From positions 1-29,681 of the forward strand of contig JASJCW010000031.1 of the NCBI GenBank assembly GCA_030065265.1: 29,681 nt of DNA, written 5' to 3'. The notes below the pieces were generated by a model. That model made no database searches. It was not told the DNA's origin and worked only from the letters and a program-made list of their open reading frames with translations. This document shows positions 1-17,091 of this stretch, in pieces. The translations under genes were made by a program, and so were the position numbers. The number at the start of each line of letters is the position of its first letter. The stretch's first letter is position 1. Origin of the DNA: Prochloraceae cyanobacterium. Its GTDB lineage: Bacteria > Cyanobacteriota > Cyanobacteriia > Cyanobacteriales > JASJDA01.

Positions 1-117
1 GCCCAAGCCTCAGATATTTTGCAACGTTATTTAAGTGCAGCTTTAACCGATACTATGCCCGTCGAAAAAGCAATGACAGCAGCGGCTTCAGAAACAAGAA
101 GATTGCTCGCCAAGTAA
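1..117 (+). CDS. 3' end (C-terminal ~38 aa) of an upstream gene, possibly a family-1 sugar ABC transporter substrate-binding protein; runs off the window start
   Basis: Open frame from base 1 to TAA at 115-117: AQASDILQRYLSAALTDTMPVEKAMTAAASETRRLLAK*. The ending resembles the C-termini of MalE/GgtB-like SBPs (A/T-rich helix, ...Q/E-T-R-x-L-L-K). Fragment only, so weak. Confidence 0.35.
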   Translation, partial: AQASDILQRYLSAALTDTMPVEKAMTAAASETRRLLAK

Positions 118-260
118 GCGATCGAGCCAAAAAAGATCTCGAAAAATCCGAATCGGCGATCCTTTTTAACATTTCCAAGATTAAATGAAAGAAGCAGCTC
201 TTTAGATTGGTACTCATTTTATCGATTTTCAAGCAGGTAAATTAATCAAAAAACAAATTC

Positions 261-1676
261 ATGAGCGATCGCGAAACAACCTTAGAAAAATTAAAACTAT
301 ACCAGCTATGGAATATGAATTGTGGCTTCCTCGGAATTCAATTCGGTTGGGGACTGCAAATGGCAAACATGAGTGCTATTTTTGAGTATCTAGGAGCTAA
401 TGCTTATCAACTACCCCTGCTTTGGATTGCCGCCCCTTTAACTGGTTTAGTCGTTCAACCGATCGTTGGCAATCTCAGCGATTATACTTGGGGGCCTTTA
501 GGGAGAAGAAGGCCTTATATCTTAGTCGGTGGAATACTTGCTTTTATTGGCCTGATATTGATGCCACATTGTTCTGCTCTCTGGATGGCCGCAGGATTGT
601 TGTGGATTTTAGATACCAGCGTCAATGTAAGTATGGTACCGTTTCGGGCATTTGTCGGCGATTTATTGCCTAAAGAGCAACGTACTTTAGGCTTTGCGAT
701 GCAAAGTCTGATGGTAGGAATCGGTGCAGTATCAGCTTCAGCTTTACCCTGGATTCTAAGTCATATTTTTTCAATATCCAACGCCAGCACGATCGCGAAC
801 ACAATACCCCTCAATATTGAAATTTCTTTTTACATCGGTGCGGCAGTATTTTTAATTACAATATTGTGGACTGTCATCACCACTAAGGAAAAACCTCCCA
901 AAAATTTAGAAAAGTTCGAGCAATTGCAAGAGCAAAGAGGCGGTATTCTCTCGAGCGTAAAAGAAACTTGGCTCTCTTTAGGAAAAATGCCTCCAACCAT
1001 GCAACAATTAGCCTGGGTGCAGTTTTTTACCTGGTTGGGTATCTTTTGTTTCTTTCTCTATTTTGCTCCAGCCGTAGCCAGAAATATCTTCGGTGCAGTT
1101 TCTCAAGACTCGAATTTATACGCTGAAGGAGTCGAATGGGCCGGATTGTGTTTTGCTTTGTATAATGCTATTTGCGTTGGTTTTTCTTTTCTTTTACCCT
1201 ATCTCGCCGAACGCACCAGCCGTCAAATTACCCACAGTTTTTGTCTGGTTTGCGGCGGGTTGAGTTTAATCTCGTTATTAGTAATTCAAAATCAATATGT
1301 TTTACTCTTAACTACGATCGGATTTGGGATAACTTGGGCCAGTGCCCTCTCAATGCCTTATGCAATGTTAGTCGGATCTATTCCCCCGCAACGTCAAGGA
1401 ATATATCAAGGCATTTTTAACCTCTTTATCGTTCTACCAGAAATAGCTGTTTCTTTAGGTTTTGGTTGGGTAATGAGAAACGTACTCCACGAAGATCGGG
1501 TTTTAGCAGTGGTCTTAGGGGGAGCATTTTTACTAGTAGCCGCAGCTTTAACCCTATTGGTCAAAACAGCTCCAACTACAATCGAGAGTCAATCCCCAGC
1601 TCAAAGCTTGTCGGGACTGACTTCAGGAGATTCTCAAAAAGTAGCTGTCAAATTAGAAGCTAAAATCGAAAATTAA
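261..1676 (+). CDS. MFS transporter of the GPH / sucrose:H+ symporter (SUT/SLC45-like) family, 12-TM
   Basis: 471-aa ORF. The N-terminal region LGIQFGWGLQMANMSAIFEYLGA...PLLWIAAPLTGLVVQPIVGNLSDYTWGPLGRRRPYIL closely matches the signature of plant/bacterial sucrose transporters (LGIQFGWALQ...GPLSGLLVQPLVG..SD....RFGRRRPFI). It is hydrophobic throughout. Confidence 0.75.
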   Translation: MSDRETTLEKLKLYQLWNMNCGFLGIQFGWGLQMANMSAIFEYLGANAYQLPLLWIAAPLTGLVVQPIVGNLSDYTWGPLGRRRPYILVGGILAFIGLILMPHCSALWMAAGLLWILDTSVNVSMVPFRAFVGDLLPKEQRTLGFAMQSLMVGIGAVSASALPWILSHIFSISNASTIANTIPLNIEISFYIGAAVFLITILWTVITTKEKPPKNLEKFEQLQEQRGGILSSVKETWLSLGKMPPTMQQLAWVQFFTWLGIFCFFLYFAPAVARNIFGAVSQDSNLYAEGVEWAGLCFALYNAICVGFSFLLPYLAERTSRQITHSFCLVCGGLSLISLLVIQNQYVLLLTTIGFGITWASALSMPYAMLVGSIPPQRQGIYQGIFNLFIVLPEIAVSLGFGWVMRNVLHEDRVLAVVLGGAFLLVAAALTLLVKTAPTTIESQSPAQSLSGLTSGDSQKVAVKLEAKIEN

Positions 1677-1864
1677 CGTTATTATTCCTTGAGGAAGAGG
1701 ATCGAAATAATTCTTATTATCTAGAATTGAGAGGATAATGGCAAAAAGCGAAAATAAGCGCAATTTCCTTGGTGTTTAAGCTTTTTGCTCGTACTAAATG
1801 TCTTAATTTCTACTTGAATCGATCTAGATTTTAGTTCGGCCCTAATTTAAATCAATCAAACAAT

Positions 1865-4800
1865 ATGGTCAATCGTTTAGTAGAGCAAAGTCTAGGTATA
1901 TCCAGGTGGAAAGTGGGTCGCTTGACTCAACTTCTCCTTCTGGCTGGCTCTGTACTGATATATAGTGTCATGTCAATGGCAGTTGCAAATTCTCTATTTG
2001 TCAGTCATGTCGGAGCCGAAAAATTGCCGATCGCTTTTATTTTAATCGGCTTATTTTCTCTGCCAGCTTATGCTGTATTTTCCCAGGTTGTCGATAGTTA
2101 CAGTCGCCCCAAACTATTTCGCTACGCTTTATTTGTCGCGATCGCCCTGGCAATTGGCTTGCGTCTTTTACTCAATTTAGAAGCAACACCAGTTTATTAT
2201 CTGCTGCTAATTATTGTTTTCTTCCATTGGGATTTTCATAACAATATTTTGTATCCCAGTTTACTAACAGATTATTTTACAACTTTAGAATACAAAAAAT
2301 ACGCCCCTTTTATCGGCATAACTCAAGCGATTGGAACTCTTTTAGGAGGAGTTTTAACAGCTTTATTGTGTCAATTTTTAACCACTAAAGACTTACTACT
2401 TTGTTTGCCGATTGTCTTCGCAATTGCGATCGCCCAATTAATTTATTTAGAGAATTCCCAACGACCTTTAGATCGGATTAAAACAGAAAATAGAGTTAGT
2501 ATTGTCGAAGCTTTAAGAACTTTCCCAGATTTAGTAAAACGCTTTCCTTTGGTTTTATTTTTAGCTAGTAGCAGCTTCGTTTTAGTTATTATTTATATTA
2601 CATCGGAATTTTTATGGTTTAATATTTACGGTCAGCATTTCAGCCACGAAGCTTTAACCGCATTTTTAGGTTTAATGCGGATTTATATTAGCATTTTAAG
2701 CGCGATCGTTTTATATGTAATCACCCGTCCTTTATTGCAATGGTTGGGAGTGATGCGAATGAATGCGATCTACCCGATGACAACTTTAGCTAGTTTTATC
2801 CTTCTGAATCTAAATTTTAATTTAGGCTCGGCTATTTTACTTCATCTCAACGGCGATTCTCTCTATAAAAGCATTAACTTGCCCGTCCATCAACTCAACT
2901 ACAATGCCATTCCTCCCGAATTTTTAGGGCGAGTGAGAACCATTAGCGACGGTGTAATTTACTCGGTGGGTTTGACCTTAGCCGGAGTTTTACTCTGGAT
3001 CTGTAACTCTTATCTAGAATTAAACCAAATAGTCTGGATCGGCATCTTTTTAAGCGCGATACTGCTCTTAATTCGCTTGCCAATGGGCAAATATTACGCC
3101 AAAGGTCTAGAAGATACGATCAGATCCGGATCGATTGAATTAGACGATTTCAATAATTATCACATTCAACTACCCCCCCAATCCAGCGCGGCAATTCGCG
3201 AACTACTAACCGACAGCGATCGCTACAGTCAAATAAAAGGTTTAGAAATGGCCGCTAAAGTAGGCAACCCGAGTCAATTCTTGCCAGAAGTTCGCGCCAT
3301 CTTACCCCAGGCTAACCCCGAATTTCGCCATTCGATCGTCAAGCTGTTTAGTTCTACTACCGACTCAAAAATGTTAGAACATTTTGAGAGCCTTCTCGAA
3401 GCAGAAAATCCAATTTTGCGAGAAACAGCTTTAGAAATATTAATTGCCAATCAATATCCAATTGCCGAAGCAAAACTAGATATTCTATTATTAGACCGTC
3501 AAAAAGAAATCAGCGTTTTAGCAGCAGTAGCGGTCAATCAGTTAAAAGAAACCGGAGAAATAAACGAAACTATTTTTGAAACCGAACTAGCCGAAAAAAC
3601 CGCCACAACCCTAGCTAGAGTAATCGGTTACACCGGCGATCGCAACTTAATCGGCATGCTCGAACCGATTTTAGCCAGCGAAAGTTCCCAAGTTAAAACA
3701 AAAGTTCTCGAAGCACTAACCAATTTAGCCCAAATCGGCGATCGCCAACTAGCCAACTTAGCAGTTAAAGAAATCAAAAATTCCTCCGCAATGGTCAGAG
3801 CTAGTGCTTTTAACCTCTTGAAAGCAACTAGATGCAAAGGAATGTTGCGTTACGCCGCGATCGGCCTCGAAGACGAAGATCCTAAAGTGCGGAATGCAGC
3901 AGCCAAAACCCTCGCAGCATACGGCAAAGAAGGTTTATCCCTTGCAGAAGATAGTTTATCATCTTCCAACCCAGAAGTAGTCACAGCAGCGATCGCCGCG
4001 ATCGGACAAGTCAAAACCAAACAAGCTAGCGACATTCTCTTTCAATATCTCGCTCCAGATTTTCAACAACTGAGTTTAACTCGCAAATGGCAGCAACAAA
4101 TCCCGCAAAATGACCCCAGTTGGCAGCCATTTACGATTGCGATCGCAGACTACCATCAACGTTTAATTCAAAAAGTTCTCTACATCCTCTCTTGTTTGGG
4201 ACACTATAAAACAGTTAATACAGTCAACCGCATTCTGGCAATTAGCGATCGCAGAACTTTAGCAAACGCTGTCGAAGTATTAGCCTCTCTCAACCATCGT
4301 CGCTTCTTTTTGCCAGTAATGCCCCTACTCGAAGATTTAGTAAAATCTAACGAAAAATCGGCCTCAAACAGCAAAAAAGACCGCAATCCTTGGCTGCGAT
4401 CGAAAGGCTACAAAATTCTCCTAGAAGCACTCGAGTCGGAAGATCGCTGGATTAGAACTGGCGCGCTGATCGCAACCGCAGGAATACCTTATGCTTTAAT
4501 AAAAGACCCCGATCCTTTTGTTAAACAAGTTGCCAGAGAAATATTTCCCCCAGTCGATCGATGTTCCCTAACTACCGCAAGTGCTGCTATGAATAGATTA
4601 CTATTACTTAAAAATATTGCCCTTTTTAAAAATCTCTCCCTCGATGAATTGCTGCAAATCGATCGAGCATTAGAATCAGAACAATATTTAGCCGGAGATA
4701 CGATCTTTAGCGAAGCTAGTTGGGGTACTCACCTTTACATTGTCGCCGAGGGACAAGTAAAAATTATCAAAGAGATAGATGGGGAAACAACCGAGATTAA

Positions 4801-5137
4801 AAGACTCGGTGTCGGTCAATATTTTGGCGAGGTTACTCTGTTCGACGATGCACCCCACTGGGAAGGGGCGATCGCTTTTTCCGACTGCACCTTACTTAAA
4901 TTAGAAAAGAATCGCTTTATTAGTTTGATTACCCAGCGACCCCATATTATTCTAGAAATTTGCCGTTTCTTGAGTCAAAGACTTCGGGAAACAGACCGTT
5001 TTAGAACCCCGAAAAAGTTCTTACCTCCTGCTGAAAATCTCAAATTAGATTTAGATACTTTTTCAGAAACACCCCGAGATCGAGTTGCCAACAGGATTCA
5101 AAATCACAATCAAAGCGAAGCTTCTTTTAAATCATAA
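1865..5137 (+). CDS. Large multidomain membrane protein: N-terminal ~400-aa polytopic domain resembling TLC (ATP/ADP translocase-like)/MFS, central HEAT/PBS-lyase-type repeats, C-terminal cyclic-nucleotide-binding (cNMP/CAP-family) domain
   Basis: 1090-aa ORF. N-terminus SHVGAEKLPIAFILIGLFSLPAYAVFSQVVDSYSRPKLFRYALFV fits the TLC-family pattern (GAE-ipflK...P....lY..l...). The middle has repeated DxDxxVRxxAAxALGxIG-type HEAT units (e.g. EDEDPKVRNAAAKTLAAYG, LESEDRWIRTGALIATAG). The C-terminus LLKNIALFKNLSLDELLQI...GDTIFSEASWGTHLYIVAEGQVKI...GVGQYFGEVTLFDDAPHWEGAIAFSDCTLLKL matches the cNMP-binding fold (FGE..L, RTA-like region). Its stop TAA (5135-5137) overlaps the next ATG (5137-5139). Confidence 0.8.
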   Translation: MVNRLVEQSLGISRWKVGRLTQLLLLAGSVLIYSVMSMAVANSLFVSHVGAEKLPIAFILIGLFSLPAYAVFSQVVDSYSRPKLFRYALFVAIALAIGLRLLLNLEATPVYYLLLIIVFFHWDFHNNILYPSLLTDYFTTLEYKKYAPFIGITQAIGTLLGGVLTALLCQFLTTKDLLLCLPIVFAIAIAQLIYLENSQRPLDRIKTENRVSIVEALRTFPDLVKRFPLVLFLASSSFVLVIIYITSEFLWFNIYGQHFSHEALTAFLGLMRIYISILSAIVLYVITRPLLQWLGVMRMNAIYPMTTLASFILLNLNFNLGSAILLHLNGDSLYKSINLPVHQLNYNAIPPEFLGRVRTISDGVIYSVGLTLAGVLLWICNSYLELNQIVWIGIFLSAILLLIRLPMGKYYAKGLEDTIRSGSIELDDFNNYHIQLPPQSSAAIRELLTDSDRYSQIKGLEMAAKVGNPSQFLPEVRAILPQANPEFRHSIVKLFSSTTDSKMLEHFESLLEAENPILRETALEILIANQYPIAEAKLDILLLDRQKEISVLAAVAVNQLKETGEINETIFETELAEKTATTLARVIGYTGDRNLIGMLEPILASESSQVKTKVLEALTNLAQIGDRQLANLAVKEIKNSSAMVRASAFNLLKATRCKGMLRYAAIGLEDEDPKVRNAAAKTLAAYGKEGLSLAEDSLSSSNPEVVTAAIAAIGQVKTKQASDILFQYLAPDFQQLSLTRKWQQQIPQNDPSWQPFTIAIADYHQRLIQKVLYILSCLGHYKTVNTVNRILAISDRRTLANAVEVLASLNHRRFFLPVMPLLEDLVKSNEKSASNSKKDRNPWLRSKGYKILLEALESEDRWIRTGALIATAGIPYALIKDPDPFVKQVAREIFPPVDRCSLTTASAAMNRLLLLKNIALFKNLSLDELLQIDRALESEQYLAGDTIFSEASWGTHLYIVAEGQVKIIKEIDGETTEIKRLGVGQYFGEVTLFDDAPHWEGAIAFSDCTLLKLEKNRFISLITQRPHIILEICRFLSQRLRETDRFRTPKKFLPPAENLKLDLDTFSETPRDRVANRIQNHNQSEASFKS

Positions 5138-6447
5138 TGAATACTCCCACAGATTATTTACTCCATCGCGATACCTTATCTCTCAAACATCAAGAATTAG
5201 CCCTAACCTTGGCAAATACAGAAAATATTCTGATAATTCAGGATCTCGATGGGGTATGTATGGGATTAGTTAAAGATCCGCTCAAAAGAACTATTGCCAA
5301 AGAATACGTTGCAGCAACTAGATCCTTTCAAAGCCACTTTTATGTCTTAACAAACGGAGAACATATCGGCCGCAGAGGAGTTAATGGCATTATTGAAAGA
5401 GCATTTCAAGATCGGCTCAAAGTCAAAGAAGAAGGTTTATTCTTACCCGGCTTGGCTGCTGGAGGAATTCAGTGGCAAGATAATTACGGTAATATCGATC
5501 ATATCGGTGTCAGCGAAGCAGAACTGTCTTTTCTCGAAGCAGTACCCGTTAAAATTGAAACTCGCTTAAAAGAGTTTTTCGCTCGATATCCAGAAGTTTT
5601 CAATCCAGCAGAACTAGAAGCATGCATTCAAGCCACCGTACTCAAAAACAAAGTCTCCCCTACAGCTAATTTAAATACTTTTTACGACCGACTCGGCAGC
5701 GATCGCCGCGATATTTATATTTCTTTGCAACAAGCAATGCAAGATTTAATGGCCGAGTTATTGCTTGAAGCCAAACAAAAAGGTCTAGAAGATTCCTTCT
5801 TCGTCCATTATGCTCCCAACCTCGGTAAAGGCGATCGGGGCAATGAAATTCTCTGGCCCGCTAGTGCTGAAAATTCAGGAACTACTGACTTTCAATTTAT
5901 GCTCGTCGGTGCCGTCAAAGAAGCAGGAGTCGTCGTAATTTTAAACAAATACTATCATTACCAGATCGGGGAATATCCCCTCGGCAAAGATTTTAACATC
6001 AGAGCCGCCGTGCAACAAAAACAAGATCTCTTCGGCTTAATTAAAAGTAATTTCGACCCGCAAATTATGCCGAAAATAGTCGGTGTTGGCGATACGGTGA
6101 CCAGCAAAGCTGAAACTACCGATAACGGCCTCGAGTTTAAAAGAGGAGGAAGCGATCGCAACTTTTTGCAATTAATTCAAGACCTCAGCGCAGCGTTCGA
6201 TACTGGTAATATTATTACTTATATCGACAGTTCTGGCGGCGAAGTTAAAAACCGCAAACCGCTCCAATTAGCTAAATTGAGCGACGATCGCCGAGAAAAT
6301 GTTACCGAAGAATTTAAAGTCATTCAAGGGCCCGGAGACGATCGCGATCGAGAAGATCCTCTCAAGCTCAACGTTGTCTTTCCCGGAGGCCATCAAGATT
6401 ATATTAAATGCTTTGTTCGAGCAGCAAAAATGCGCGCTAGCAAATAA
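5137..6447 (+). CDS. ggpP: HAD-like phosphatase, candidate glucosylglycerol-3-phosphate phosphatase (GgpP/StpA-like)
   Basis: 436-aa ORF. It has an N-terminal DLDGV motif (HAD motif I). Its size is close to Synechocystis StpA (422 aa). It sits immediately upstream of ggpS, within a glpK/glpD/ggpS cluster. It is translationally coupled (TAATG) to the upstream sensor-like gene. The functional call comes from context plus motif, not a verified alignment. Confidence 0.5.
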   Translation: MNTPTDYLLHRDTLSLKHQELALTLANTENILIIQDLDGVCMGLVKDPLKRTIAKEYVAATRSFQSHFYVLTNGEHIGRRGVNGIIERAFQDRLKVKEEGLFLPGLAAGGIQWQDNYGNIDHIGVSEAELSFLEAVPVKIETRLKEFFARYPEVFNPAELEACIQATVLKNKVSPTANLNTFYDRLGSDRRDIYISLQQAMQDLMAELLLEAKQKGLEDSFFVHYAPNLGKGDRGNEILWPASAENSGTTDFQFMLVGAVKEAGVVVILNKYYHYQIGEYPLGKDFNIRAAVQQKQDLFGLIKSNFDPQIMPKIVGVGDTVTSKAETTDNGLEFKRGGSDRNFLQLIQDLSAAFDTGNIITYIDSSGGEVKNRKPLQLAKLSDDRRENVTEEFKVIQGPGDDRDREDPLKLNVVFPGGHQDYIKCFVRAAKMRASK

Positions 6448-7001
6448 TAGTCTGGCAAAAAATTAATATTTCACCAATTGATTTGACTTCTCTTCATAAA
6501 GTGTAATAAAAGGTTTCCTTCGGAGAATCGTAATGTTAGTATATGTTACGTATTAGTGAAAAATTAACTGCAATACTGCGTTTATAGCAAAGCTATGCAA
6601 TAGGAAATTGCCATAAATTGAAAAATAATTCTATAAATACAAAAAGTTGGGATTGAATTAAAAATTGATAGTAGTTAGAAAGTATTTTTAATCTAGATTT
6701 AATAGCTCCAATAAAGATCCCATTTACCTAAAAATTCTGCCAAAAAACAATAAATAAATTGGAGAAAATCTAGAAAATAAAATAGCAGCAAGTTCGAGAT
6801 ACTAACTTTTTACTGAAAATATAATCTCAATTATAAGTATTTAATCGTATTGTCTGTTAGGGTAGCAAAAATTATTTTCAATGTTATCTAAATTTTTATA
6901 AACGCGATCGGCCCGTTTTACTGATAAGTTAGAAAAATGTTTTATAAAACTCCTGTAGGTTAGTTCCAATTAACACAAAGGATTATTCAAAAAATAAACC
7001 C
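6448..7001 (+). promoter_or_regulatory. 554-bp AT-rich non-coding 5' region of ggpS (promoter/leader; possible regulatory RNA or small ORF region)
   Basis: No ORF of 60 aa or more on either strand. It is extremely AT-rich with poly-A/T tracts. In Synechocystis the ggpS upstream region carries the small regulator ggpR and is post-transcriptionally regulated. Exact promoter elements not resolved. Confidence 0.3.
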
Positions 7002-8486
7002 ATGAAATCTTCTCTAGTCATTCTCTATCATCGCGAACCTTACGACGAAGTAGTCGAAAACGGGAAAACTCGCTATTTACCCAAAAAAAGCCCCAACGGT
7101 ATCGTTCCTACCCTCAAAAGCTTCTTCGCTGAAGTCAGTCAAGGAGCGTGGATCGCTTGGAAACAAATAACAGTCAAACAAAAAGCAAAATTTCAAGCCA
7201 AAGTGCAGGTTGAAGAAGAACAGGGAAACTACGATGTTGTCAGAATTCCTTTAAACGCAGAACAAGTTAAACAGTTCTATCACATCACTTCCAAAGAAGC
7301 ATTTTGGCCTATTTTGCACTCTTTTCCTTTTCACTTCACCTACGAATCTTCCGACTGGGAAAACTTTAAAAATATCAATCGTTTATTCGCCGAAGCAGCC
7401 TGTGAAGAAGCTGCAGACGATGCTTTAATTTGGATTCACGATTATAATTTGTGGCTAACACCTCAATACATCAGAGAAATTAAACCAGACGCAAAAATTG
7501 CATTTTTTCACCATACCCCCTTCCCTTCAGTAGACATTTTTAACATTTTGCCTTGGCGAGAAGAAATCGTTAATAGTTTGCTTTGTTGCGACATTGTCGG
7601 GTTTCACATTCCTAGGTATGCAGAAAATTTTGTTAATGTTGCTCGCAGTTTGCAGCCGTTAGAAATTTTAGAAAAAAAAGCTGTCACCGGACATATGACC
7701 CCCGTAGGGACTGCTTTAGCAGAGCCAGAAGTAACCACTAAGCTCAAGTTTAAAGGACAGGTGGTCAACGTCGATGCTTTCCCCGTCGGAACTAATCCCG
7801 GATATATTCTCTCAGTATTGAGCCAAGAAGAAACTCAAAAAAGACTCGCTCAAATTGAAGAAGAGTTACAAGGACGCAAATTAATTATTGCTGCAGGTCG
7901 AGTAGACTACGTTAAAGGCAACAAAGAAAAATTAGATGCTTTCGGTCGCTTGCTAGAACGCCGTCCCGACCTACATGGTAAAATCAACTTCGTCATGACC
8001 TGCGTGCAACCTGCGGTTGGTATGCGAGTCTATAAAACTGCTCAAGGTCAAATCGAGCAATTAGTCGGGAAAATAAACGGCAGATATGCCAAACTAGGCT
8101 GGACACCGATCTTACTCTTCACCCAACCCTTACCCCTATCAGATTTATTCTGTTACTACCGTTTAGCAGATATTTGTTGGACGACACCCCTGCGAGACGG
8201 CTTAAATTTAGTCGCCAAAGAATATGTGATCGCTCACAAAGGTGAAGGAGGAGTTCTGGTTCTTTCCGAATTCGTTGGTGCTGCAGTAGAATTGCCAGAA
8301 GCAATTTTAACTAATCCTTACTCCATCGATCGCATGGATGAATCCATCGATCGCGCCCTATCGATGCCCAAAGAAGAACAAAAAGAAAGAATGGCGAAAA
8401 TGTACGAAACCGTCAGCAAATACGATGTTAAGTATTGGGCCGATCGCCTTCTAGACTCCTTCAAAGCCATTAAAGAGCAAAATTGA
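7002..8486 (+). CDS. ggpS: Glucosylglycerol-phosphate synthase (GT20 family, OtsA-like)
   Basis: 494-aa ORF. It contains LIWIHDYNLWLTPQYIRE (compare OtsA IIWIHDYHLLP), FFHHTPFPSVDIFNILPWREEI and LNLVAKEY motifs of GT20 trehalose-P/GG-P synthases. The N-terminus SLVILYHREPYDEV... and the length (~499 aa in Synechocystis GgpS) fit GgpS rather than OtsA. It neighbours glpK and glpD. Confidence 0.8.
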   Translation: MKSSLVILYHREPYDEVVENGKTRYLPKKSPNGIVPTLKSFFAEVSQGAWIAWKQITVKQKAKFQAKVQVEEEQGNYDVVRIPLNAEQVKQFYHITSKEAFWPILHSFPFHFTYESSDWENFKNINRLFAEAACEEAADDALIWIHDYNLWLTPQYIREIKPDAKIAFFHHTPFPSVDIFNILPWREEIVNSLLCCDIVGFHIPRYAENFVNVARSLQPLEILEKKAVTGHMTPVGTALAEPEVTTKLKFKGQVVNVDAFPVGTNPGYILSVLSQEETQKRLAQIEEELQGRKLIIAAGRVDYVKGNKEKLDAFGRLLERRPDLHGKINFVMTCVQPAVGMRVYKTAQGQIEQLVGKINGRYAKLGWTPILLFTQPLPLSDLFCYYRLADICWTTPLRDGLNLVAKEYVIAHKGEGGVLVLSEFVGAAVELPEAILTNPYSIDRMDESIDRALSMPKEEQKERMAKMYETVSKYDVKYWADRLLDSFKAIKEQN

Positions 8487-8557
8487 CAGCCCAAATAAAC
8501 CGGCAAATTTGAGAGTTCGAGCAGTCAGCAGTTAGCAGTCAGCAAGATTCTTACTCG

Positions 8558-10063
8558 CTACTCGCTCCAATTTTTTGCCCTTTCTACGGCTTTTTGCCAA
8601 ATGCGATAACTATCCTCAATGCGATCGCGACCGCCTTTTGCCGGCTCGAAAACGCGATCGATCTTGCGAGTCGAAATTAAAGCACCGTAATCGTCCCAAA
8701 AACCGACAGCTAAACCAGCACCAAAAGCAGCACCTTGCGCGGTAGCATCCAAAATAGCCGGACGCTCGACGGGAATACCTAAAGCATCAGCTTGAAACTG
8801 CATTAAAAAATTATTTTGAGAAGCACCACCATCAACTTTTAAACGAGCCACAGAAAAATCGCTATCTCGGTTAGCCGCTTCAACAACCTCTTTAACCCGA
8901 TAGGCGATCGCTTCTAAAACAGCTCTGACGGCATGTTCTCGCTTCACTCCCCCAGTAAGACCTAAAAAAGCACCTCGAGCGTTAGTATCCCAGTGTGGCG
9001 CGCCCAAACCGCTCAATGCAGGGACAAAATAGACCCCATTCGTATCTTCGACGCTGCTGGCTAAATCTTCCGTTTCTGGCGCGCTGGCAATTATTTTCAA
9101 GCCATCTCGCAACCATTGTATCGATGCACCCGTAGTGAAGATCGCACCTTCTAAAGCGTAATTAGTCGAATCAGGTTGCGTCCAAGCAACGGTAGAGAGC
9201 AGTTTTTGGGACGAGCGAGTTAAATTGAGTCCGGTTTGTACGATTAAAAAAGAACCAGTGCCGTAGGTGCATTTTAACAAGCCCGGGCGATCGCACCCAT
9301 GAGCGAATAAAGCCGACTGCTGGTCGCCAAATATTGCCGTAATCGGAATTTCTGCATCCAATAGTTGGGGATCGGTCTTGCCGAAACTGCCCATACTGTG
9401 TTTGATTTCCGGCATCATCTGGGTGGGAATGGCAAATAAATCCAATAATCGGCGATCCCATTCTAAAGTGGCTAAATTCATTAGCATAGTCCGACTTGCG
9501 TTACTATGGTCGGTGGCATGTACTTGACCGCCAGTCAAATTCCACAAAATCCAACTATCGATCGTCCCAGCAATTACATTATCTAAATCGATCGCCGGTC
9601 TTTCTTGCTTGACCCAATTTAGCAACCAAGTCAGTTTAGTTGCCGAAAAATAAGGATCGAGAATTAATCCCGTAATTTCTTGAATTTCTTTATCTTTGCC
9701 TTTTGCTGCTAAATCGCGACACATTGAAGCAGTACGACGATCTTGCCAGACGATCGCCTTGTGCAAAGGTTCTCCTGTTGTTTTGTCCCATAACAAACAA
9801 GTTTCTCTTTGAACTGTCAAACCGATTGCAGCAATTTCTCGAGCCGAAATCTTGGTATTTTGCAAAACTAATTCGATTACAGTGCGAGTATCTTGCCAAA
9901 TTTCCCGCGCGTCGTGTTCGAGCCAGCCGGGTTGGGGATAATATTGAGTTAATTCTTTGTAAGCTTGGCCGACAATATTGCCGCTGCGATCGAATAAAAT
10001 TGCTCTATTTCCTGTCGTACCTAAATCTATTGCTAGAACGTATTTATAAGTATTGTTTGTCAT
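8558..10063 (-). CDS. glpK: Glycerol kinase
   Basis: N-terminal YVLAIDLGTTGNRAILFD matches the FGGY-kinase / GlpK signature, as do the internal GLTVQRET, ALEGAIFTTGASIQWLRDGL and GGASQNNFLMQFQADALGIPVERP motifs. The ORF-track start at 10111 adds 16 non-conserved residues. The internal ATG at 10061-10063 (MTNNTYKYVLAIDLG) is the likely start. Confidence 0.9.
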   Translation of the reverse strand: MTNNTYKYVLAIDLGTTGNRAILFDRSGNIVGQAYKELTQYYPQPGWLEHDAREIWQDTRTVIELVLQNTKISAREIAAIGLTVQRETCLLWDKTTGEPLHKAIVWQDRRTASMCRDLAAKGKDKEIQEITGLILDPYFSATKLTWLLNWVKQERPAIDLDNVIAGTIDSWILWNLTGGQVHATDHSNASRTMLMNLATLEWDRRLLDLFAIPTQMMPEIKHSMGSFGKTDPQLLDAEIPITAIFGDQQSALFAHGCDRPGLLKCTYGTGSFLIVQTGLNLTRSSQKLLSTVAWTQPDSTNYALEGAIFTTGASIQWLRDGLKIIASAPETEDLASSVEDTNGVYFVPALSGLGAPHWDTNARGAFLGLTGGVKREHAVRAVLEAIAYRVKEVVEAANRDSDFSVARLKVDGGASQNNFLMQFQADALGIPVERPAILDATAQGAAFGAGLAVGFWDDYGALISTRKIDRVFEPAKGGRDRIEDSYRIWQKAVERAKNWSE

Positions 10064-10213
10064 AGTAGGGAACGGGTCAAAATAATAAATTGAACTGCAA
10101 TTATAGAGCAAGTCGCGAGTAAAATTCCGAGGAGAAAATCTTACTTAAATTAATTTAAAATTCAAGATTTTTTTACTCTTTATTCAAAAAATTTTACTCT
10201 CTTGATGCTCTAT

Positions 10214-12721
10214 TTAATCTTCCGATTTTTGAATCGGTTTTAATAATAAAGCTTGACTGTTAGCTAAATTAAAACAACGCAGATCTGCTAAATTATTATT
10301 ATCATTTAGTCCTACAGAAGCAAGATCGACAGTCCATTCTGACATATCCAGTTGCAACCAGTCCCCTAAAGTAATTTCAAAAGGCTCGCCTTCGAGATGG
10401 GCTACCATTGCGATTTGTTCGGTAGGATTTTCTGGATTAGAGCGAATCCCGTAAAAAATCGTGCGATCGCCTTCACTAATTTTATTAAAACGATCTGTTG
10501 CTTTGAGATTCCCATTCAACCAGGAGCGATCGCGACGAAATTGTCGCAATTTAAGATTGAATTCCGTATTGTCAGGATTGAGATCTTCTAAGTAATGGGA
10601 AACATTGCAAACTTCATAGCAATCTTCCATAAACATTTGGGCAAATTTTTTAAATCTTTCTACATTTAGCTTGCGAATGTAACTGATAATTTCAGGAGTA
10701 TCCAGAAATTTCATGAAGAAAAGATCGGTATCGGAAATATCAATGCGATCGTTTTTAATTAAACTGTGAAAAGTTTGAATTACCTCTAAGAGATCGTAAT
10801 TTCTTTCTAATATGGTTTCTTCTAAAAACCTACCAAAAGCCCGCAACTGTTCTAAAGTTTTAAAACCGAGAGATTTGACCCGAGGAAAAACCCATTCTCG
10901 ATCGTAAAATTCCGGGCTAATTTGCCAATCTAAAAAGCCCATTTCTTCGGAAATAACTTTAACACCGTAGCGATCGTCAGTATTGCGAAAAAACATCCAG
11001 GGCGATCTGGTAGTACAATTAATAAAATCCATCGGCAAACCCGGAGAAAAACCGTAAACCCACAAAGTGACGGCTTGATTGTCGTAGGCATGGCGAATTA
11101 CTTCAGTTAAATTTTCCCCCAATCGCCAGTTGATTGGCTTGCTAGGATCTACTTGAGAACCGCGTCTGAGGGTATCGTGATTGCCGCAACCAGTGATCCA
11201 GCGATCGCCCATCTGAATTACTTCGCAGACTCGCCGCCATTTCCGTTCCCAAAAACCAGTCAAAGTGGGGGTATTGTGGGCAAAAATTAGCGGCCCCCAT
11301 TGGTAAGATTCGGGTTTGAGTTCGATTAATTCCCGATAGGTAGATTTTTCTTCCCAACCTTCTTCGGGCCAGGGGCGACCGTCTTCATAAATCGTGAAAA
11401 GCAATCTTTGACAGCCATTTATTTCTTGAACTAAATCGCTCATTGCCAACAAATAGGCATCGTCTTGTTCTACTCTTCCAGATAAAGGATTAAAAAAGCG
11501 GAAATCCTGACCGCCATCGACGCGAATACCATCAGCCCCAGTGTTAATTTTACGACGCTGCAGTTCCAAAAATATCGCCCGCACCGTCGGCAATTGATGG
11601 TTGAGATCTTGCCCGTACATATTCGGGCCTTTAAGATACTGACGGTTAATTAATAATTCGGCTTGATTGTCAGCATGACCGTAAACTAAATCGTAAATGA
11701 TTTGAATCGGGCCCGTAGGAAAATTATGTAAAGTAGCGATAAAATCAATTAGTTCGTCCGGGCGCAGACTTTGTAAAATAGCTGGGTTGGTAGCACTAGA
11801 ACCGAGAATAGGAACGTCGTAGCCCCAATCTTGAGTATTTGGTTTTAATAATTTAATTGGCGATCTGTTGAGGGGAGGAAGTATTCTCGCTTTGCGATCT
11901 GATTCTTTATCAGCAAACAAAAAAAATTCACTTTCTTGCTGGTAATTTTGCCTGTATTCGATCGGCGGTTCGATCGGCAATAACTGTACTGCATCGTAAC
12001 CGACATAACATTCTTCTGCCGGAGTAAGCGGAATATTTTCTCGGATTTTGCGACTGATTTGACGGTAAATTTCCGTTAAACCGGCGATCGTTCCCGATCG
12101 CGAAGCAGTACCGATATGAAGTTGTAAAATAGCAACTGGCGCGCCAACTCGAGGCACTTCTTCATCCCCGTTCGCTCTTGAAGTGCGCCGCAAATATTCC
12201 ATATCTTCCCGATTGGCCTGCAAACTCTCCATATCGTAAAGTTCGGCCGGAGCAAAGATACCGAAAGGTAGAGAATAGGGCATCATATCCCGAATTGTTT
12301 GCAATTGCCCTTTTTGATTGTAGTAGCGCAACCAATAAAAACAACCAGGTCGATCTTTAGTTCCAGCTTGCATCCCTTCGATCGCACCCCAAAAAAATTC
12401 ACCTTGCTGTTTTAAACGCAAACAGTCGCGGCGAAAATGAGTAGTTTGCATCGGCGATCGCCAGTCGATTTCTTCTAAGGGAGTAAAAACTTCTAAATAT
12501 ATATCTCGCGGTCGCATTATTTCCCCAGTTAATTCCGGGGCCCAAAAACCTATTTCAGTCAAACCATTCTGACGGTGGTAGTGCGCACCTAATTTAGTAG
12601 CTAAGGCTTCTGCTCTCTCAAAAACAGTTGCATCGGACTGTTCTATTTCTTTAGCCCAGTCCAATAATTCTTGGGTTGCATCCTCAGCAAGTTTGACAAA
12701 ATCTTTTGTTTCTATAACCAT
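10214..12721 (-). CDS. gghA: GH13-like glycoside hydrolase, candidate glucosylglycerol hydrolase (GghA-like)
   Basis: 835-aa ORF. GYDAVQLLPIEP resembles GH13 region I (GxTHVELLPV). ADGIRVDGGQDF resembles GH13 catalytic region II (DGFRxDAAKH). Its size is close to Synechocystis Slr1670/GghA. It lies directly upstream of glpK on the same strand, as gghA does relative to glpK in Synechocystis. Confidence 0.5.
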   Translation of the reverse strand: MVIETKDFVKLAEDATQELLDWAKEIEQSDATVFERAEALATKLGAHYHRQNGLTEIGFWAPELTGEIMRPRDIYLEVFTPLEEIDWRSPMQTTHFRRDCLRLKQQGEFFWGAIEGMQAGTKDRPGCFYWLRYYNQKGQLQTIRDMMPYSLPFGIFAPAELYDMESLQANREDMEYLRRTSRANGDEEVPRVGAPVAILQLHIGTASRSGTIAGLTEIYRQISRKIRENIPLTPAEECYVGYDAVQLLPIEPPIEYRQNYQQESEFFLFADKESDRKARILPPLNRSPIKLLKPNTQDWGYDVPILGSSATNPAILQSLRPDELIDFIATLHNFPTGPIQIIYDLVYGHADNQAELLINRQYLKGPNMYGQDLNHQLPTVRAIFLELQRRKINTGADGIRVDGGQDFRFFNPLSGRVEQDDAYLLAMSDLVQEINGCQRLLFTIYEDGRPWPEEGWEEKSTYRELIELKPESYQWGPLIFAHNTPTLTGFWERKWRRVCEVIQMGDRWITGCGNHDTLRRGSQVDPSKPINWRLGENLTEVIRHAYDNQAVTLWVYGFSPGLPMDFINCTTRSPWMFFRNTDDRYGVKVISEEMGFLDWQISPEFYDREWVFPRVKSLGFKTLEQLRAFGRFLEETILERNYDLLEVIQTFHSLIKNDRIDISDTDLFFMKFLDTPEIISYIRKLNVERFKKFAQMFMEDCYEVCNVSHYLEDLNPDNTEFNLKLRQFRRDRSWLNGNLKATDRFNKISEGDRTIFYGIRSNPENPTEQIAMVAHLEGEPFEITLGDWLQLDMSEWTVDLASVGLNDNNNLADLRCFNLANSQALLLKPIQKSED

Positions 12722-12847
12722 AATGTTAATACGTTGGAAATATTATTGCTGATTTTTAAACAATACAGCAAAATTAACACTCAATATTTCTTTGGCAAAA
12801 AACCGAACTATGATGGAATTTAGTAAACATTCATAAAATCGTAAATC

Positions 12848-14533
12848 GTGAGAGACTATCAATCAATTAAAAATACAAGCTACGAAGCAATAATTATCGG
12901 TGGAGGGATAAATGGAGCGGGAGTAGCTCGAGATGCTGCTTTAAGAGGATTAAAAACTATTTTAATCGAAAAAAACGATTTTGCTAGTGGTAGTTCTAGT
13001 TGGTCTACTAGATTAGTGCATGGAGGGTTGCGATATCTAGAATATTTTGAATTACCTTTAGTAAGAGAGTCTTTAAAAGAAAGAGAAATTTTATTAAACA
13101 TCGCCCCTCATTTAGTTAAACCTCTTTTATTAACCGTACCAGTTTACGGCGATCGCTCTCGCCCTTATTGGAAAATTTGGGCTGGAATGATTCTGTACGA
13201 TCTTTTTAGCTTTGATAAAACCCTCCCGGGTTATAGAATGCTAAATAAAGCAAAATTTAAGCGGATTTTTCCGACTTTAGATCCTGAAAATTTAAGTGGT
13301 GGAGCGCAATATTACGACGCTCGAGTTGCTCATGCTGAAAGATTGTGTCTTGAAAATATTATTTCAGCTAAAGAAGCCGGTGCAGACGTACTCAATTACG
13401 TCAAAGTAACTCGATTGCACCTTGAAGGGAAGAAAATTACTCATCTTACCTGCAAAGATACCTTGACAGGAGAAGAATTTACAGTTAAAGGCACAGAAGA
13501 TGCAGTGATTGTAAACACTTCAGGCCCTTGGGTAGATGAAGTATGTGGTTCTATTGAAATCGAAGCAACCAAAGCCGACAGTTCCAAGGCGATCGTTCAC
13601 GGTAAAAAAATGGGGCCGACTAAAGGCAGCCATATTGTTGTCGATCCTTTTCCAGGTGCGCCAGAAAGCGGTCTTTACGTTGAAGCTAAATCCGACGGTC
13701 GTCCTTTCTTTATTTTGCCTTGGTTGGGTAAATATTTAATCGGAACTACGGATTTTCCCTATCACAAAGATCTCGAATCGATCAAAGCAGATAACGATGA
13801 AATCGATTATTTATTAACAGAAACAAATAATATTTTACCGACAGCTAATTTATCGCGCCAAGATATTAAATTCACCTATTCTGGAGTGCGTCCTTTACCA
13901 AACGAAGCAGGAAAAAAAGCCGGGAGTATTACTCGCTCTCACATTCTCTTTGACGGAAAAAAAGAAGGGGTATTTAATTTAATTTCTCTAATTGGCGGCA
14001 AACTAACAACCTATCGTCAAGTAGGCGAAGAAATAGTCGATGCGATTTTAAAAAAACAAGGCAAACCAATTTCTAGCTCTAAAACGGCTCTTCAACCTTT
14101 ACCCGGAGCTATTAAAGCCTCTAATCCTCTGATTCAAAAAACTATCGATCTATATCGGGATAAAGTTTCTTTAAACATTATTGCCCATCTCTTTTCTCTT
14201 TACGGAGCTAGAGCTGTCTCAGTTTTAGAATTAACCGAAGAAAATCCTGAATTAGCCGAAACTATTCATCCCGAATTACCAGATATTAAAGCCCAACTCG
14301 TCTATGGAGTCCGAGTTGAATTTGCCCTGAGTTTAGTAGATTTGATTCGCCGTCGCACTGCGATCGCCATGGAGGCTAATTACGGCTTAGATGTACTGAC
14401 AACCTCGATCGAAGTTTTACAAAAATATTGCAATTGGAGCGCAGAACGTTGCGAACTGGCTCGTTCTGAATATATTACTTATATGAAAAACAATTGCATT
14501 CCCGATTTTGAATTAGAGGCAAACTTAATATAG
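12848..14533 (+). CDS. glpD: FAD-dependent glycerol-3-phosphate dehydrogenase
   Basis: YEAIIIGGGINGAGVARDAALRGLKTILIEKNDFASGSSSWSTRLVHGGLRYLE is the classic GlpD N-terminal FAD-binding signature (GGGINGAG...D.A.GTSS.S.KL.HGGLRYLE). 561 aa. Confidence 0.9.
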   Translation: MRDYQSIKNTSYEAIIIGGGINGAGVARDAALRGLKTILIEKNDFASGSSSWSTRLVHGGLRYLEYFELPLVRESLKEREILLNIAPHLVKPLLLTVPVYGDRSRPYWKIWAGMILYDLFSFDKTLPGYRMLNKAKFKRIFPTLDPENLSGGAQYYDARVAHAERLCLENIISAKEAGADVLNYVKVTRLHLEGKKITHLTCKDTLTGEEFTVKGTEDAVIVNTSGPWVDEVCGSIEIEATKADSSKAIVHGKKMGPTKGSHIVVDPFPGAPESGLYVEAKSDGRPFFILPWLGKYLIGTTDFPYHKDLESIKADNDEIDYLLTETNNILPTANLSRQDIKFTYSGVRPLPNEAGKKAGSITRSHILFDGKKEGVFNLISLIGGKLTTYRQVGEEIVDAILKKQGKPISSSKTALQPLPGAIKASNPLIQKTIDLYRDKVSLNIIAHLFSLYGARAVSVLELTEENPELAETIHPELPDIKAQLVYGVRVEFALSLVDLIRRRTAIAMEANYGLDVLTTSIEVLQKYCNWSAERCELARSEYITYMKNNCIPDFELEANLI

Positions 14534-14536
14534 AGA

Positions 14537-16054
14537 TTGAGGATAATGGATAATAATTTTTTTAAGGACTCGTTGGATAAAAAAGTTATCGAACAACGGG
14601 TTAGTGCAATTAGCCAAGCTAAGGTGGGATTTTATAGCATCGGTCTTTATCCGGCCTCTCTTGCTTACAATTCGGCAATGCAAAAAAGCAATAAATCTCT
14701 TCTATTAGCTACCCGGCCGGGAAGATCTCTCCTCGGGGCATTTTCTGAAGAGGAAATTAAAGGAATGGATCCCCGACACCTCGTCAAGATGCGTCGCATG
14801 GCATCCCATAAAGAAAACGGAAAATCCGTACCGAATACTCTAGAATACTTGATCGCAAAGTGCGATTTAATCGTCTTGAGTTCTAATAGTAAATACATCA
14901 AGCAAGATCTCGACCAAGCTTGCAATCTTAGAAAAAAGCTCGGTCGCACTAATGTCGTGCTTTCCTGTCTAGCAGGTTCTTTCAACCACGATGAAGCTAA
15001 TAATGAGTCTTATGTATTGTGCGAAAAATATCCCAATCTGGCCTTTTTCTCTGGATTTCATCGACACGGTTCGTTAAGAGATCCGGTAGATAGTTTTACA
15101 GCTAATTTTTGCCATCCCAATTCTTTAACAGCTTTGATCGGGGCCCACATACTGAATCAACTTTCTCCGAACATTCAAGTTTCTCCTGGAATTCACAATG
15201 TTGAAGCGCAATATTTGAAAGCTGCTAAAAATATGGCATCTATTTTTGCCGGTTTTGGTTATGTTTATCACGAGCAAAATCCAGGGATTCTGCCTACTCT
15301 ATTGACTTTGTTGCTCCATCAATGTTTAGATCAGGCTGCGACCGTTTCTATGTCGCGACAAGATCGCGAAAAGCTTTACACTCAGCAAACCATTGCTTTA
15401 ACGGAGTTAGGTTATGCTATACCGAGAATTGAAGCAGTCTTAAATAAAGGTGGTTTTACCGAAAAAGTTCGCGATCATACTTTTTCTCAATTAACGGCGA
15501 TGGTTGCTGACGTGCGAGGAAGTATGATGCTTCCAGTCACTGGGAAACCTACCAGAAATTTTCAAGCCGGACAAGCTTTAGCCTACGGTATGTCGAAACA
15601 CGGTCGCTGTCCGATCGACGTTAAAGAATTTGAACAGTGGTGTAAAGATGCTGGATTAAATGTCGGATCTTTAGAAGGTTTAAAAGCTTTGAAATACTGG
15701 CCGCAAATCGAAGCAAAATACTCAATTCAAAATCACGATGCTTCAATGGTTAATCTTCTTTATAAGGGATTGTATGGCACTGAAGAAGAAAAAGATTTTG
15801 CTTTTGAAGTGATGACACAAAGTCGAGAATTATCAAATTATTGTCAAGAGTCGGTTCGACATACCCACAGTCGCAAGTATGCAGAAGCCCTTAATCATAT
15901 CGAACAATTAGAAGCACTCGAATTAATTTCAAACGCTATTATTGCCGACAACGCGCGCAAAGCTATTCGCAATAACGATAATCCAATTGAAGAAAGAGAA
16001 TTAAATTCAGATACTCCAGCTTATTTGCGAGCAATTGACTCTATCGAACAATAG
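14537..16054 (+). CDS. Hypothetical protein with a GpsA-like (NAD-dependent G3P dehydrogenase / opine-DH fold) core, degenerate dinucleotide motif, ~120-aa C-terminal extension
   Basis: 505-aa ORF starting 3 nt after the glpD stop. Weak but collinear resemblance to GpsA: KVGFYSIGLYPASLA versus KIAVLGAGSWGTALA (glycines lost), CDLIVLSSNSKYIKQ versus ADLVLFVVPSQAFRE, LSCLAGSF versus VISGPTF, and TGKPTRNFQAGQALAYGMS versus TDNQSRNRRFGMMLGQGMD. Assignment is tentative. Confidence 0.4.
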   Translation: MRIMDNNFFKDSLDKKVIEQRVSAISQAKVGFYSIGLYPASLAYNSAMQKSNKSLLLATRPGRSLLGAFSEEEIKGMDPRHLVKMRRMASHKENGKSVPNTLEYLIAKCDLIVLSSNSKYIKQDLDQACNLRKKLGRTNVVLSCLAGSFNHDEANNESYVLCEKYPNLAFFSGFHRHGSLRDPVDSFTANFCHPNSLTALIGAHILNQLSPNIQVSPGIHNVEAQYLKAAKNMASIFAGFGYVYHEQNPGILPTLLTLLLHQCLDQAATVSMSRQDREKLYTQQTIALTELGYAIPRIEAVLNKGGFTEKVRDHTFSQLTAMVADVRGSMMLPVTGKPTRNFQAGQALAYGMSKHGRCPIDVKEFEQWCKDAGLNVGSLEGLKALKYWPQIEAKYSIQNHDASMVNLLYKGLYGTEEEKDFAFEVMTQSRELSNYCQESVRHTHSRKYAEALNHIEQLEALELISNAIIADNARKAIRNNDNPIEERELNSDTPAYLRAIDSIEQ

Positions 16055-16105
16055 TAAATTTAATTAAATCTAAGATATTTATTTAGTCCCACTTCCTCTG
16101 TAATA

Positions 16106-16177
16106 TTACCCCAAAAGTTTTGGGGTATTTTCTAGATAAAACCCTTCAATTATCAAAGTTTTAATCCCAATTCTGTT
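16106..16177 (-). pseudogene. Relic of a methyltransferase 3' end (degenerate duplicate of the C-terminus of the 17097..17714 gene)
   Basis: Minus-strand translation gives NRIGIKTLIIEGFYLENTPKLLG*. The C-terminus of the adjacent SAM-MTase reads ...KSIIIEEFYVENAPKIMGYYY. Identical or similar at 15 of 18 positions, K[ST][IL]IIE[EG]FY[VL]EN[AT]PK[IL][ML]G, including the stop-proximal position. There is no upstream ORF continuation (stop immediately 5'). Confidence 0.35.
16107..16133 (+). terminator. Rho-independent terminator candidate downstream of the 505-aa ORF
   Basis: TACCCCAAAAG TTTTGGGGTA forms a perfect 9-10-bp inverted repeat (ACCCCAAAA/TTTTGGGGT), followed by TTTTCT. It lies 53 bp after the stop at 16054. 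Confidence 0.5.
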
Positions 16178-16323
16178 TAAAGTTGCTAAACTTCGGTGAT
16201 GAGAGGGAAGAGGCAATAGATTCGGAAAATAGATCTGTAGTATTATTTTAGGGAATTAGTATAAATCGATTTTTAACTACTTTAAAAAAAAGTACAATAA
16301 CATTGCAAAAAAATAGGTATTTT

Positions 16324-17091
16324 TCAAGCATTTTTAATAAAGCGAATAATTTCGCGAACGTTGCCTAAAAATTTACTGTCTTCTGCGAGCTGAGAAATAG
16401 CATTTTTTGCTGCTTCAGATAAGCGTTGATGTTCTCTTTGGTTATCCGCTTTTAATCCTTCTAAATTTGCCCTTAATTTTGCCGTATTTTCGCGAATTTG
16501 TTGCCATTCTCTTTGCTGAATGTTAACTAAGGAACTATCGTTTTTTGGATCTAATTTTTCCGAAATTTTTTGAACGTTATTCTCTAAGAATATCAAGCGA
16601 GATTGCAATTCAATTACATCTTCTCGAGGATATTTGATTTCACGGCGAATTGAAGATATCCTAGCCTCTAGGTACTGATAAAAACTAATCGCAGGACGCA
16701 ATCCAGTTAACAATAAAGCAGCAGCAGAACTAATATAACCGATCGCACTAATTCCGGTAGCTGCTAAAATATAAAGTCCGATCGCCGAAATAAGATGCAA
16801 TGCGATCGCAATTATAATCGACCAACGAGATACCAAAGTAACGTATTCAATTTGTTTGTTATCTACTGTTATTCCTTTTTCTTGCGATGTTTCGCTTTCT
16901 ATTATTACTTGTTTGGCTTCAAAATAGATATTCCAAGGTATAGTTACAATAACTACTAACCACCAAAAACTAGCTATTCCGAAGATCCAATCGATTAAAT
17001 TACCTGCCGGAATGTGAAGCCATTCTAAAATTCCAAATAATAGTAAAACAAGCAAGCCTAATCCTATAGTAAACATTACTGACGCAATCAT
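16324..17091 (-). CDS. Hypothetical membrane protein: 4 predicted TM helices followed by a long coiled-coil C-terminal domain
   Basis: 255-aa ORF. Hydrophobic segments IASVMFTIGLGLLVLLLFGIL, IFGIASFWWLVVIVTIPW, WSIIIAIALHLISAIGLYILAA and IGYISSAAALLLTGL. The C-terminus is rich in heptad-like E/K/Q/L (LQSRLIFLENNVQKISEKL...LRANLEGLKADNQREHQRLSEAAKNAISQLAEDS). Its start lies 5 nt downstream of the MTase stop (operon). Confidence 0.6.
   Translation of the reverse strand: MIASVMFTIGLGLLVLLLFGILEWLHIPAGNLIDWIFGIASFWWLVVIVTIPWNIYFEAKQVIIESETSQEKGITVDNKQIEYVTLVSRWSIIIAIALHLISAIGLYILAATGISAIGYISSAAALLLTGLRPAISFYQYLEARISSIRREIKYPREDVIELQSRLIFLENNVQKISEKLDPKNDSSLVNIQQREWQQIRENTAKLRANLEGLKADNQREHQRLSEAAKNAISQLAEDSKFLGNVREIIRFIKNA

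Follow-up and report, generated by a model that had tools for sequence, protein, structure and literature searches.

A SUT/SLC45-like transporter gene next to cyanobacterial glucosylglycerol genes is half of a conserved two-gene cassette with an NTT-HEAT-cNBD protein

Cyanobacteria make sucrose and glucosylglycerol (GG) in large amounts, and the Ggt ATP-binding cassette (ABC) system is the one uptake route that the reviews consulted describe. A 29,681-nucleotide stretch of the genome of a Prochloraceae cyanobacterium (contig JASJCW010000031.1; the whole stretch is called the window below) carries, upstream of genes of GG metabolism, a transporter gene that resembles the plant sucrose transporters (SUT). 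A first-pass annotation of the window took this transporter, rather than the Ggt system, to head a GG island. Is it a GG transporter, and with which genes does it belong? We found the gene to be one half of a conserved two-gene cassette, and we think it probable that it encodes a functional 12-helix importer of the SUT/SLC45 branch that would carry a glucoside together with a proton, and that it would be co-transcribed with GG synthesis in the source lineage. The cassette is made up as follows.

261-1676, plus strand: SUT/SLC45-like transporter of the major facilitator superfamily (MFS), 471 amino acids, 12 transmembrane (TM) helices (open reading frame, profile, fold and residues).
1677-1864: spacer inside the cassette, 188 nucleotides (sequence).
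1865-5137, plus strand: membrane protein of 1090 amino acids with an MFS-like 'NTT' domain, HEAT repeats and a cyclic-nucleotide-binding domain (Pfam, identity and synteny).

The transporter gene is intact. The sucrose-transporter signature that had been noticed in the window is present in a complete open reading frame (ORF), with LGIQFGWGLQ spanning residues 24-33 and GRRRPYIL residues 81-88; their counterparts in the alignment with Arabidopsis SUC1 (phmmer, E 1.1e-22) are AGVQFGWALQ and GRRRPFIA. When all PDB sequences were searched with phmmer at E <= 0.01, only three distinct sequences of two proteins were returned, SUC1 with the E-value just given and two constructs of human SLC45A4 at about 3e-11. 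The product passes the Pfam cut-offs for MFS_1 (97 bits) and MFS_2 (38.6 bits), and its top NCBIfam match is TIGR01301 GPH_sucrose (E 2e-34), the match being limited to the first two thirds of that model (positions 14-329 of 476). With 26 homologues as input, AlphaFold2 gave a structure model (pLDDT 81.5, pTM 0.79) with 12 long helices and two short loop helices; in a Foldseek comparison with the PDB this structure model matched SLC45A4 (two entries, E about 1e-13) and SUC1 (3e-12) best, the next MFS protein following at 8e-9. The best matches by sequence and by fold thus place the transporter in the SUT/SLC45 branch of the GPH-type MFS carriers, in keeping with the plant-SUT-like GPH assignment made earlier, and NCBI labels one of its cyanobacterial homologues 'SLC45 family MFS transporter'. 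Set against a 98% relative, the gene differs synonymously in 34 codons and non-synonymously in 9, which on these counts places it under purifying selection. Literature searches on cyanobacterial SUT/SLC45 homologues, on an MFS-type GG transporter and on slr0593 returned nothing relevant.

We mapped the functional residues of SUC1, as defined by mutagenesis and simulation (PMC10281868), onto the transporter by script through the phmmer alignment, which is uncertain over the TM5 stretch. In SUC1, D152 is the proton acceptor and Q50 its partner, W47 and N156 contact the glucosyl moiety, and R163 is the gate (PMC10281868). Q44, W47 and Q50 correspond to Q27, W30 and Q33 of the transporter, D152 to D118, N156 to N122, R163 to R129, W294 and F298 to W258 and F262, and N449 to N387. 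These nine residues are invariant in 120 cyanobacterial homologues wherever the position is occupied, the sole exception being one F262Y; I452 of SUC1 is I390 here, and I or V throughout the homologues. The motif of TM1 (QFGWGLQ, residues 27-33) and that of the loop between TM2 and TM3 (GRRRPYI, residues 81-87) are likewise well kept, G81-Y86 being invariant in a 26-sequence alignment. Although the transporter is only about 22% identical to SUC1 (PDB 8bb6), and SUC1's long extracellular insertion between TM1 and TM2 falls on gaps in it, the two proteins have in common the 12-TM GPH-type MFS fold, QFGWxLQ in TM1, the GRRRP loop, the TM4 Asp with the TM1 Gln, the glucosyl-contacting Trp and Asn, the gate Arg and the TM11 motif NLxIVxP.

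The other half of the cassette is a protein of a family that has no known function, the NTT-HEAT-cNBD fusions (Major et al. 2017, PMC5381601). Pfam assigned HEAT_2 and cNMP_binding to it, together with a weak MFS_1 match (24.8 bits) on the membrane domain, and this domain shares 66% identity with Pleurocapsa PCC 7319 WP_019507100.1, which is classed as 'HEAT_cNBD' in the dataset of that study. The architecture agrees with that of the published fusions; it differs from them in that the Pfam TLC (ATP/ADP-translocase) model did not match its membrane domain even at E <= 10. With Pfam and NCBIfam combined at the same threshold, no TLC or NTT model was found for the domain, and weak MFS and OxlT matches were the only ones. 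A profile search of the PDB likewise returned a single weak match, the oxalate:formate antiporter OxlT, and a homologue search with the domain gave 30 matches, mostly partial, named 'cyclic nucleotide-binding domain-containing protein'.

To see how widely the two genes occur together, relatives of the transporter were collected from 185,579 species genomes, which gave 37 loci, and a second scan, of metagenomes, was started from the 1090-residue partner and gave 57 loci with 6-kb flanks (loci from both scans carry L numbers below). Wherever the flank of a cyanobacterial genome locus was long enough, which was so at 17 loci, the partner follows the transporter directly and on the same strand, without exception. 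Of the 42 metagenome loci that were informative when searched from the partner side, 34 have the transporter as a same-strand neighbour of the partner, upstream in 31 and immediately downstream in 3, and the other 8 are without a transporter. The gap between the genes in many relatives is 0-60 nucleotides or the genes overlap as ATGA, and this stop/start overlap was confirmed by inspection of L007 and L080. Nucleotide homology (blastn) between the window and L002, whose transporter is 85% identical, spans positions 250-5044 only, which argues that the cassette moves as a block. The conserved and often translationally coupled pairing with an NTT-HEAT-cNBD protein is a more novel point than the transporter itself; Major et al. 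2017 (PMC5381601) mention no sugar-transporter neighbour for these proteins, and we found no description of a SUT-like symporter paired with one in the literature searched.

Some details of individual loci concern the make-up and the surroundings of the cassette. In L050-L052, three contigs of Joint Genome Institute (JGI) metagenomes, the order is inverted, the partner coming before the transporter at a distance of about 90 nucleotides; the pairing has therefore survived rearrangement. L009, from a Waterburya metagenome-assembled genome (MAG), has a 394-codon ORF (11388-12572) between transporter and partner, perhaps a mobile element. When the 109 genes on the flanks of the cassette in the 17 loci were assigned to Pfam families, no enrichment for compatible-solute or glycoside-hydrolase genes was seen. 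The sole recurrent flank was a GT4 glycosyltransferase, at four loci, and the other neighbours were heterogeneous. This glycosyltransferase, of about 395 residues, lies divergently upstream of the cassette (L002 1-1064, L008 1758-2945, L012 1-1179, L038 8462-9652), and its four copies are 71-73% identical to each other.

The cassette of the window has the following neighbours.

1-117, plus strand: C-terminal 38 codons and stop of a CUT1-type ABC substrate-binding protein of 430 amino acids (translation and related contigs).
118-260: spacer between the binding-protein gene and the MFS gene, 143 nucleotides (read from the sequence).
5137-6447, plus strand: glucosylglycerol-3-phosphate phosphatase, GgpP/StpA (PF09506, 559 bits, and TIGR02399, 506 bits, above cut-off).
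7002-8486, plus strand: glucosylglycerol-phosphate synthase, GgpS (TIGR02398, 760 bits, above cut-off).
8558-10111, minus strand: glycerol kinase, GlpK (TIGR01311, 661 bits).
10214-12721, minus strand: GHL5-family glycoside hydrolase (PF14872, 1395 bits).
12848-14533, plus strand: glycerol-3-phosphate dehydrogenase, GlpD (NF008899, 362 bits; Pfam DAO and DAO_C).

GHL5 is presumably the family of the GG hydrolase GghA/Slr1670, the role of which has been described (PMC6753628). As the first-pass annotation had it, GG genes do follow, for synthesis and for degradation as judged from Pfam and NCBIfam; its placing of the transporter directly upstream of them was wrong, with the 3.3-kb partner gene lying between the transporter and ggpP. 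The TAA stop codon of the partner and the ATG of ggpP overlap by one nucleotide, as TAATG (5135-5139). Since the start of ggpP thus overlaps the last stop codon of the cassette, the two are probably co-transcribed in the source lineage, and the overlap suggests translational coupling of ggpP to the cassette in that lineage only. L039, a 98% relative, has an identical gene order from the binding-protein gene through GlpK. The GC content is about 0.40 throughout positions 1-17000, with no sign of a recent transfer of cassette or island, and an Rfam scan of the whole window gave no family at gathering score.

The gene upstream of the transporter had been read as the truncated tail of an ABC substrate-binding protein. 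The C-terminus is indeed that of a sugar-type (CUT1) binding protein, frame 1 of bases 1-117 translating to AQASDILQRYLSAALTDTMPVEKAMTAAASETRRLLAK*, but the truncation is the edge of the window and the gene is no pseudogene. Beyond position 1, related contigs hold the full 430-codon SBP_bac_1/SBP_bac_8 gene, at 253-1545 of L001 (an identical ENA contig) and at 974-2266 of L039 (NCBI contig JAAUYH010073299.1, 98% identical). The protein matches GanS, UgpB and MalE weakly, and it belongs to a large CUT1 group of more than 3000 homologues, mostly cyanobacterial and named 'ABC transporter substrate-binding protein', one of them 'CUT1 family'; its 120 best matches are all at least 62% identical, and Synechocystis GgtB (slr0529) is not among them.

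The binding protein is of the class used by GgtABCD (SBP_bac_1, CUT1), which is the accepted route of GG, sucrose and trehalose uptake (PMC6753628), as the first-pass annotation had stated. GgtABCD, however, is an ATP-driven primary system as opposed to a proton symporter, and no permease or ATPase gene adjoins the binding-protein gene here. Its flanks in L039 are a divergent unknown gene upstream and the MFS gene, with no permease gene next to it, and there is no ABC permease or ATPase gene within the 29.7-kb window. The 63% identical orthologue of Halothece PCC 7418 is the first gene of an operon in which two permease genes and an ATPase gene follow the binding-protein gene, and the orthologue of Pleurocapsa PCC 7319 is followed by one permease gene. 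With a complete ABC binding-protein gene next door, and with an orthologue that heads an ABC operon in Halothece, the wording that the symporter occurs 'rather than' the canonical ABC system had to be dropped. In the MAG with the 85%-identical transporter, the orthologue of the binding protein (77%) lies on a different contig, with dapB before it and a rhodopsin gene after it. It precedes this gene of the bacteriorhodopsin family by about 650 nucleotides (L040/L041 11957-12907), and the interval holds a small unannotated ORF. That the binding protein might feed the MFS carrier was considered and rejected, the two genes being unlinked in the 85% relative; we know of no MFS carrier that uses a binding protein.

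The SUC1 comparison allows a mechanism to be proposed for the importer. A proton would be taken up by D118 in TM4, with Q33 in TM1 as its partner, and the glucosyl ring would be recognized by W30 and N122; R129 and N387 stand at positions where mutation of SUC1 abolished transport, and sucrose, GG, trehalose or maltose would be the candidate substrates. The transporter gene is kept across cyanobacteria as half of the cassette, with the NTT-HEAT-cNBD protein as the other half. The cassette moves as a block, and in the source lineage only it has an orphan sugar-ABC binding-protein gene on one side and ggpP on the other; probable co-transcription with GG synthesis could there let it recapture leaked osmolyte. 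As the orphan binding protein, the cassette and the GG genes have been brought together in this lineage, re-uptake of GG or sucrose by the transporter is plausible there.

A number of observations weigh against parts of this proposal. The TIGR01301 score of the transporter, 119 bits, is far below the cut-off of 511 bits, so that, by NCBI's definition, the protein is a relative of the plant SUT subfamily from outside it and not a plant-type SUT in the strict sense; the cut-off of TIGR00792 gph, the GPH:cation symporter model, was missed as well (30 bits against 231), and MFS_2 is the Pfam model of the wider group that was passed. Twelve of the mapped SUC1 positions differ in the transporter, among them N155 (V/A), Q159 (M), F184 (Q), M188 (V/L), F423 (L) and Q456 (E394). 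Because the aglycone-facing residues of SUC1 are not kept here, the preferred glucoside need not be sucrose, and the aglycone preference may differ. The closest heterotroph relatives point towards maltodextrins, and the literature searched contains no transport assay for any member of the cyanobacterial clade. The case for co-transcription consists of the one-nucleotide overlap, and a promoter and terminator scan of positions 1-8600 gave match counts equal to those in shuffled sequences.

The linkage to GG genes also fails to extend beyond the source lineage. The search for it covered GgpS, GgpP, GlpK, GghA, GlpD and the binding protein, and tblastn queries with these proteins had no match within 10 kb in 36 genome loci. 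At the metagenome loci, GG genes were present within 6 kb only at L043, which is the L039 contig, and neither GG genes nor the binding protein at the other 56. Of the roughly 95 related loci, only those of the source lineage (L001 and L039 = L043) thus have GG genes or the binding protein within 6-10 kb; apart from the transporter and the partner, no window protein was found in any fetched locus of another lineage, and in other lineages the cassette has no linked GG, sucrose or trehalose gene. That the transporter heads the GG island as a functional unit is therefore not supported; its conserved neighbour is the NTT-HEAT-cNBD gene, which the first-pass annotation had left unmentioned. The GG-island context is confined to one lineage, and the family should not be annotated as GG transporters on this basis.

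What the transporter carries can accordingly be read in several ways. It might be a dedicated symporter for the re-uptake of GG or another osmolyte that belongs to the GG island and replaces or supplements the Ggt ABC system, a view that we regard as tentative and, on balance, doubtful. In the source lineage it forms one co-directional run with ggpP and ggpS, and the next gene upstream, in the same direction, is that of a sugar-binding protein. GG is an alpha-glucoside, and the residues that recognize the glucosyl moiety in SUC1 are kept. Clustering of transport genes with GG genes has a precedent in Synechocystis, where ggtA is immediately downstream of ggpP (PMC8670252), and the organism names give the impression that most named homologues are those of marine or saline cyanobacteria. 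Speaking against it are the absence of GG genes from the related loci other than the source-lineage contigs, the different neighbourhood of the cassette in the 85% relative, where the binding-protein orthologue is on another contig, and the 3.3-kb gene that separates the transporter from ggpP. Another reading, possible but again not the one we favour, takes maltose or maltooligosaccharides, as products of alpha-glucans, for the substrate and the position next to GG genes for incidental. JGI names several cyanobacterial homologues of 70-73% identity 'maltose/moltooligosaccharide transporter', but this name was transferred automatically. No NTT-HEAT-cNBD partner accompanies the 50-58% identical relatives of Acidobacteria, Chitinophagaceae and Verrucomicrobia. 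Genes for GH13 alpha-amylase or cyclomaltodextrinase adjoin them in the Acidobacteria loci L022 (2749-8102), L024 and L030 (11248-13041), with genes for TonB-type outer-membrane barrels in L022 and L030 as well; a GH13 protein adjoins the relative in L028 of Chitinophagaceae (6564-9761), and in L029 (4203-5645) the relative follows an OprB carbohydrate porin. Caulobacter MalA is a characterized maltose/maltodextrin member of the transporter's family. These contexts are consistent with alpha-glucosides in general and do not single out GG. The cyanobacterial genes bear the same JGI name as these alpha-glucan-locus transporters, but they adjoin NTT-HEAT-cNBD genes, and the cassette's neighbours in cyanobacterial loci include neither GH13 nor other alpha-glucan genes and no glycoside hydrolase.

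A substrate other than a sugar, such as a polyamine, is very improbable. The thought arises from SLC45A4 (PDB 9giu/9ghz), the top fold match of the transporter (TM-score about 0.75), which carries polyamines and had long been mis-assigned as a sucrose carrier (PMC12507699). SLC45A4 requires E63 and an acidic ladder of D169, D173 and E176 (PMC12507699). The TM4 Asp and Arg are common to both proteins, but the TM1/TM4 acidic ladder for polyamines is missing from the transporter, in which D169, D173 and E176 correspond to D118, N122 and M125 and E63 to Q27; three of the four essential acidic residues are thus neutral, and at these positions the transporter shows the pattern of SUC1. The SLC45A4 chains, moreover, have 774-792 residues, and with 471 the transporter leaves no room for a long cytoplasmic plug domain of the SLC45A4 type (PMC12507699). 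Because the proton-site and glucosyl-contacting residues of SUC1 are kept and the polyamine ladder is absent, the transporter is most likely a proton-coupled glucoside symporter, as far as its residues can tell. Such a symporter might work mainly in reverse, as a valve that releases compatible solutes after hypo-osmotic shock and is gated or signalled by the cyclic-nucleotide domain of the partner. Proton symporters do run backwards at high internal sugar, E. coli CscB exporting sucrose from engineered cyanobacteria (PMC9971976), and the tight coupling to a membrane protein that binds cyclic nucleotides suggests regulation; the heterotroph relatives, however, sit in uptake loci, and we consider this role quite improbable. 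Symporter and NTT-HEAT-cNBD protein might also form one translationally coupled module, widespread in cyanobacteria, in which the cyclic-nucleotide-sensing protein would regulate glucoside transport or act jointly with it, for instance by cyclic AMP-gated uptake or release of sugar or osmolyte. In the source lineage this module would have joined the ggpP operon as a secondary-transport route for GG parallel to the ABC system; this reading we hold to be unlikely.

If the transporter is indeed a proton-coupled glucoside symporter, a native SUT-type carrier would give cyanobacteria a second route of osmolyte recapture or export. Such a carrier would also be of use in sugar-secreting production strains, the engineering of sucrose export at present depending on E. 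coli CscB. It would further provide a prokaryotic model for the SUT/SLC45 mechanism, and the pairing would offer the first functional handle on the widespread and conserved NTT-HEAT-cNBD family. The negative result is equally useful, in that a lineage-specific GG-island context is unsuitable for annotating a whole family as GG transporters.

Further observations concern the GG genes and the remainder of the window. The 554-nucleotide spacer upstream of ggpS (6448-7001) contains no sizeable ORF and has a GC content of 26% in the 6501-7000 bin; it is probably the ggpS regulatory region. Three nucleotides after the glpD stop codon, an ORF of 505 codons begins (14537-16054, plus strand) to which neither Pfam nor NCBIfam gave a match, perhaps an unknown gene of the GG/glycerol cluster. 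Positions 16324-17714 hold a methyltransferase gene and an unknown ORF of 255 codons, and four tandem TerD-domain genes, coding for 191-198 amino acids each, lie on the minus strand at 18113-20713.

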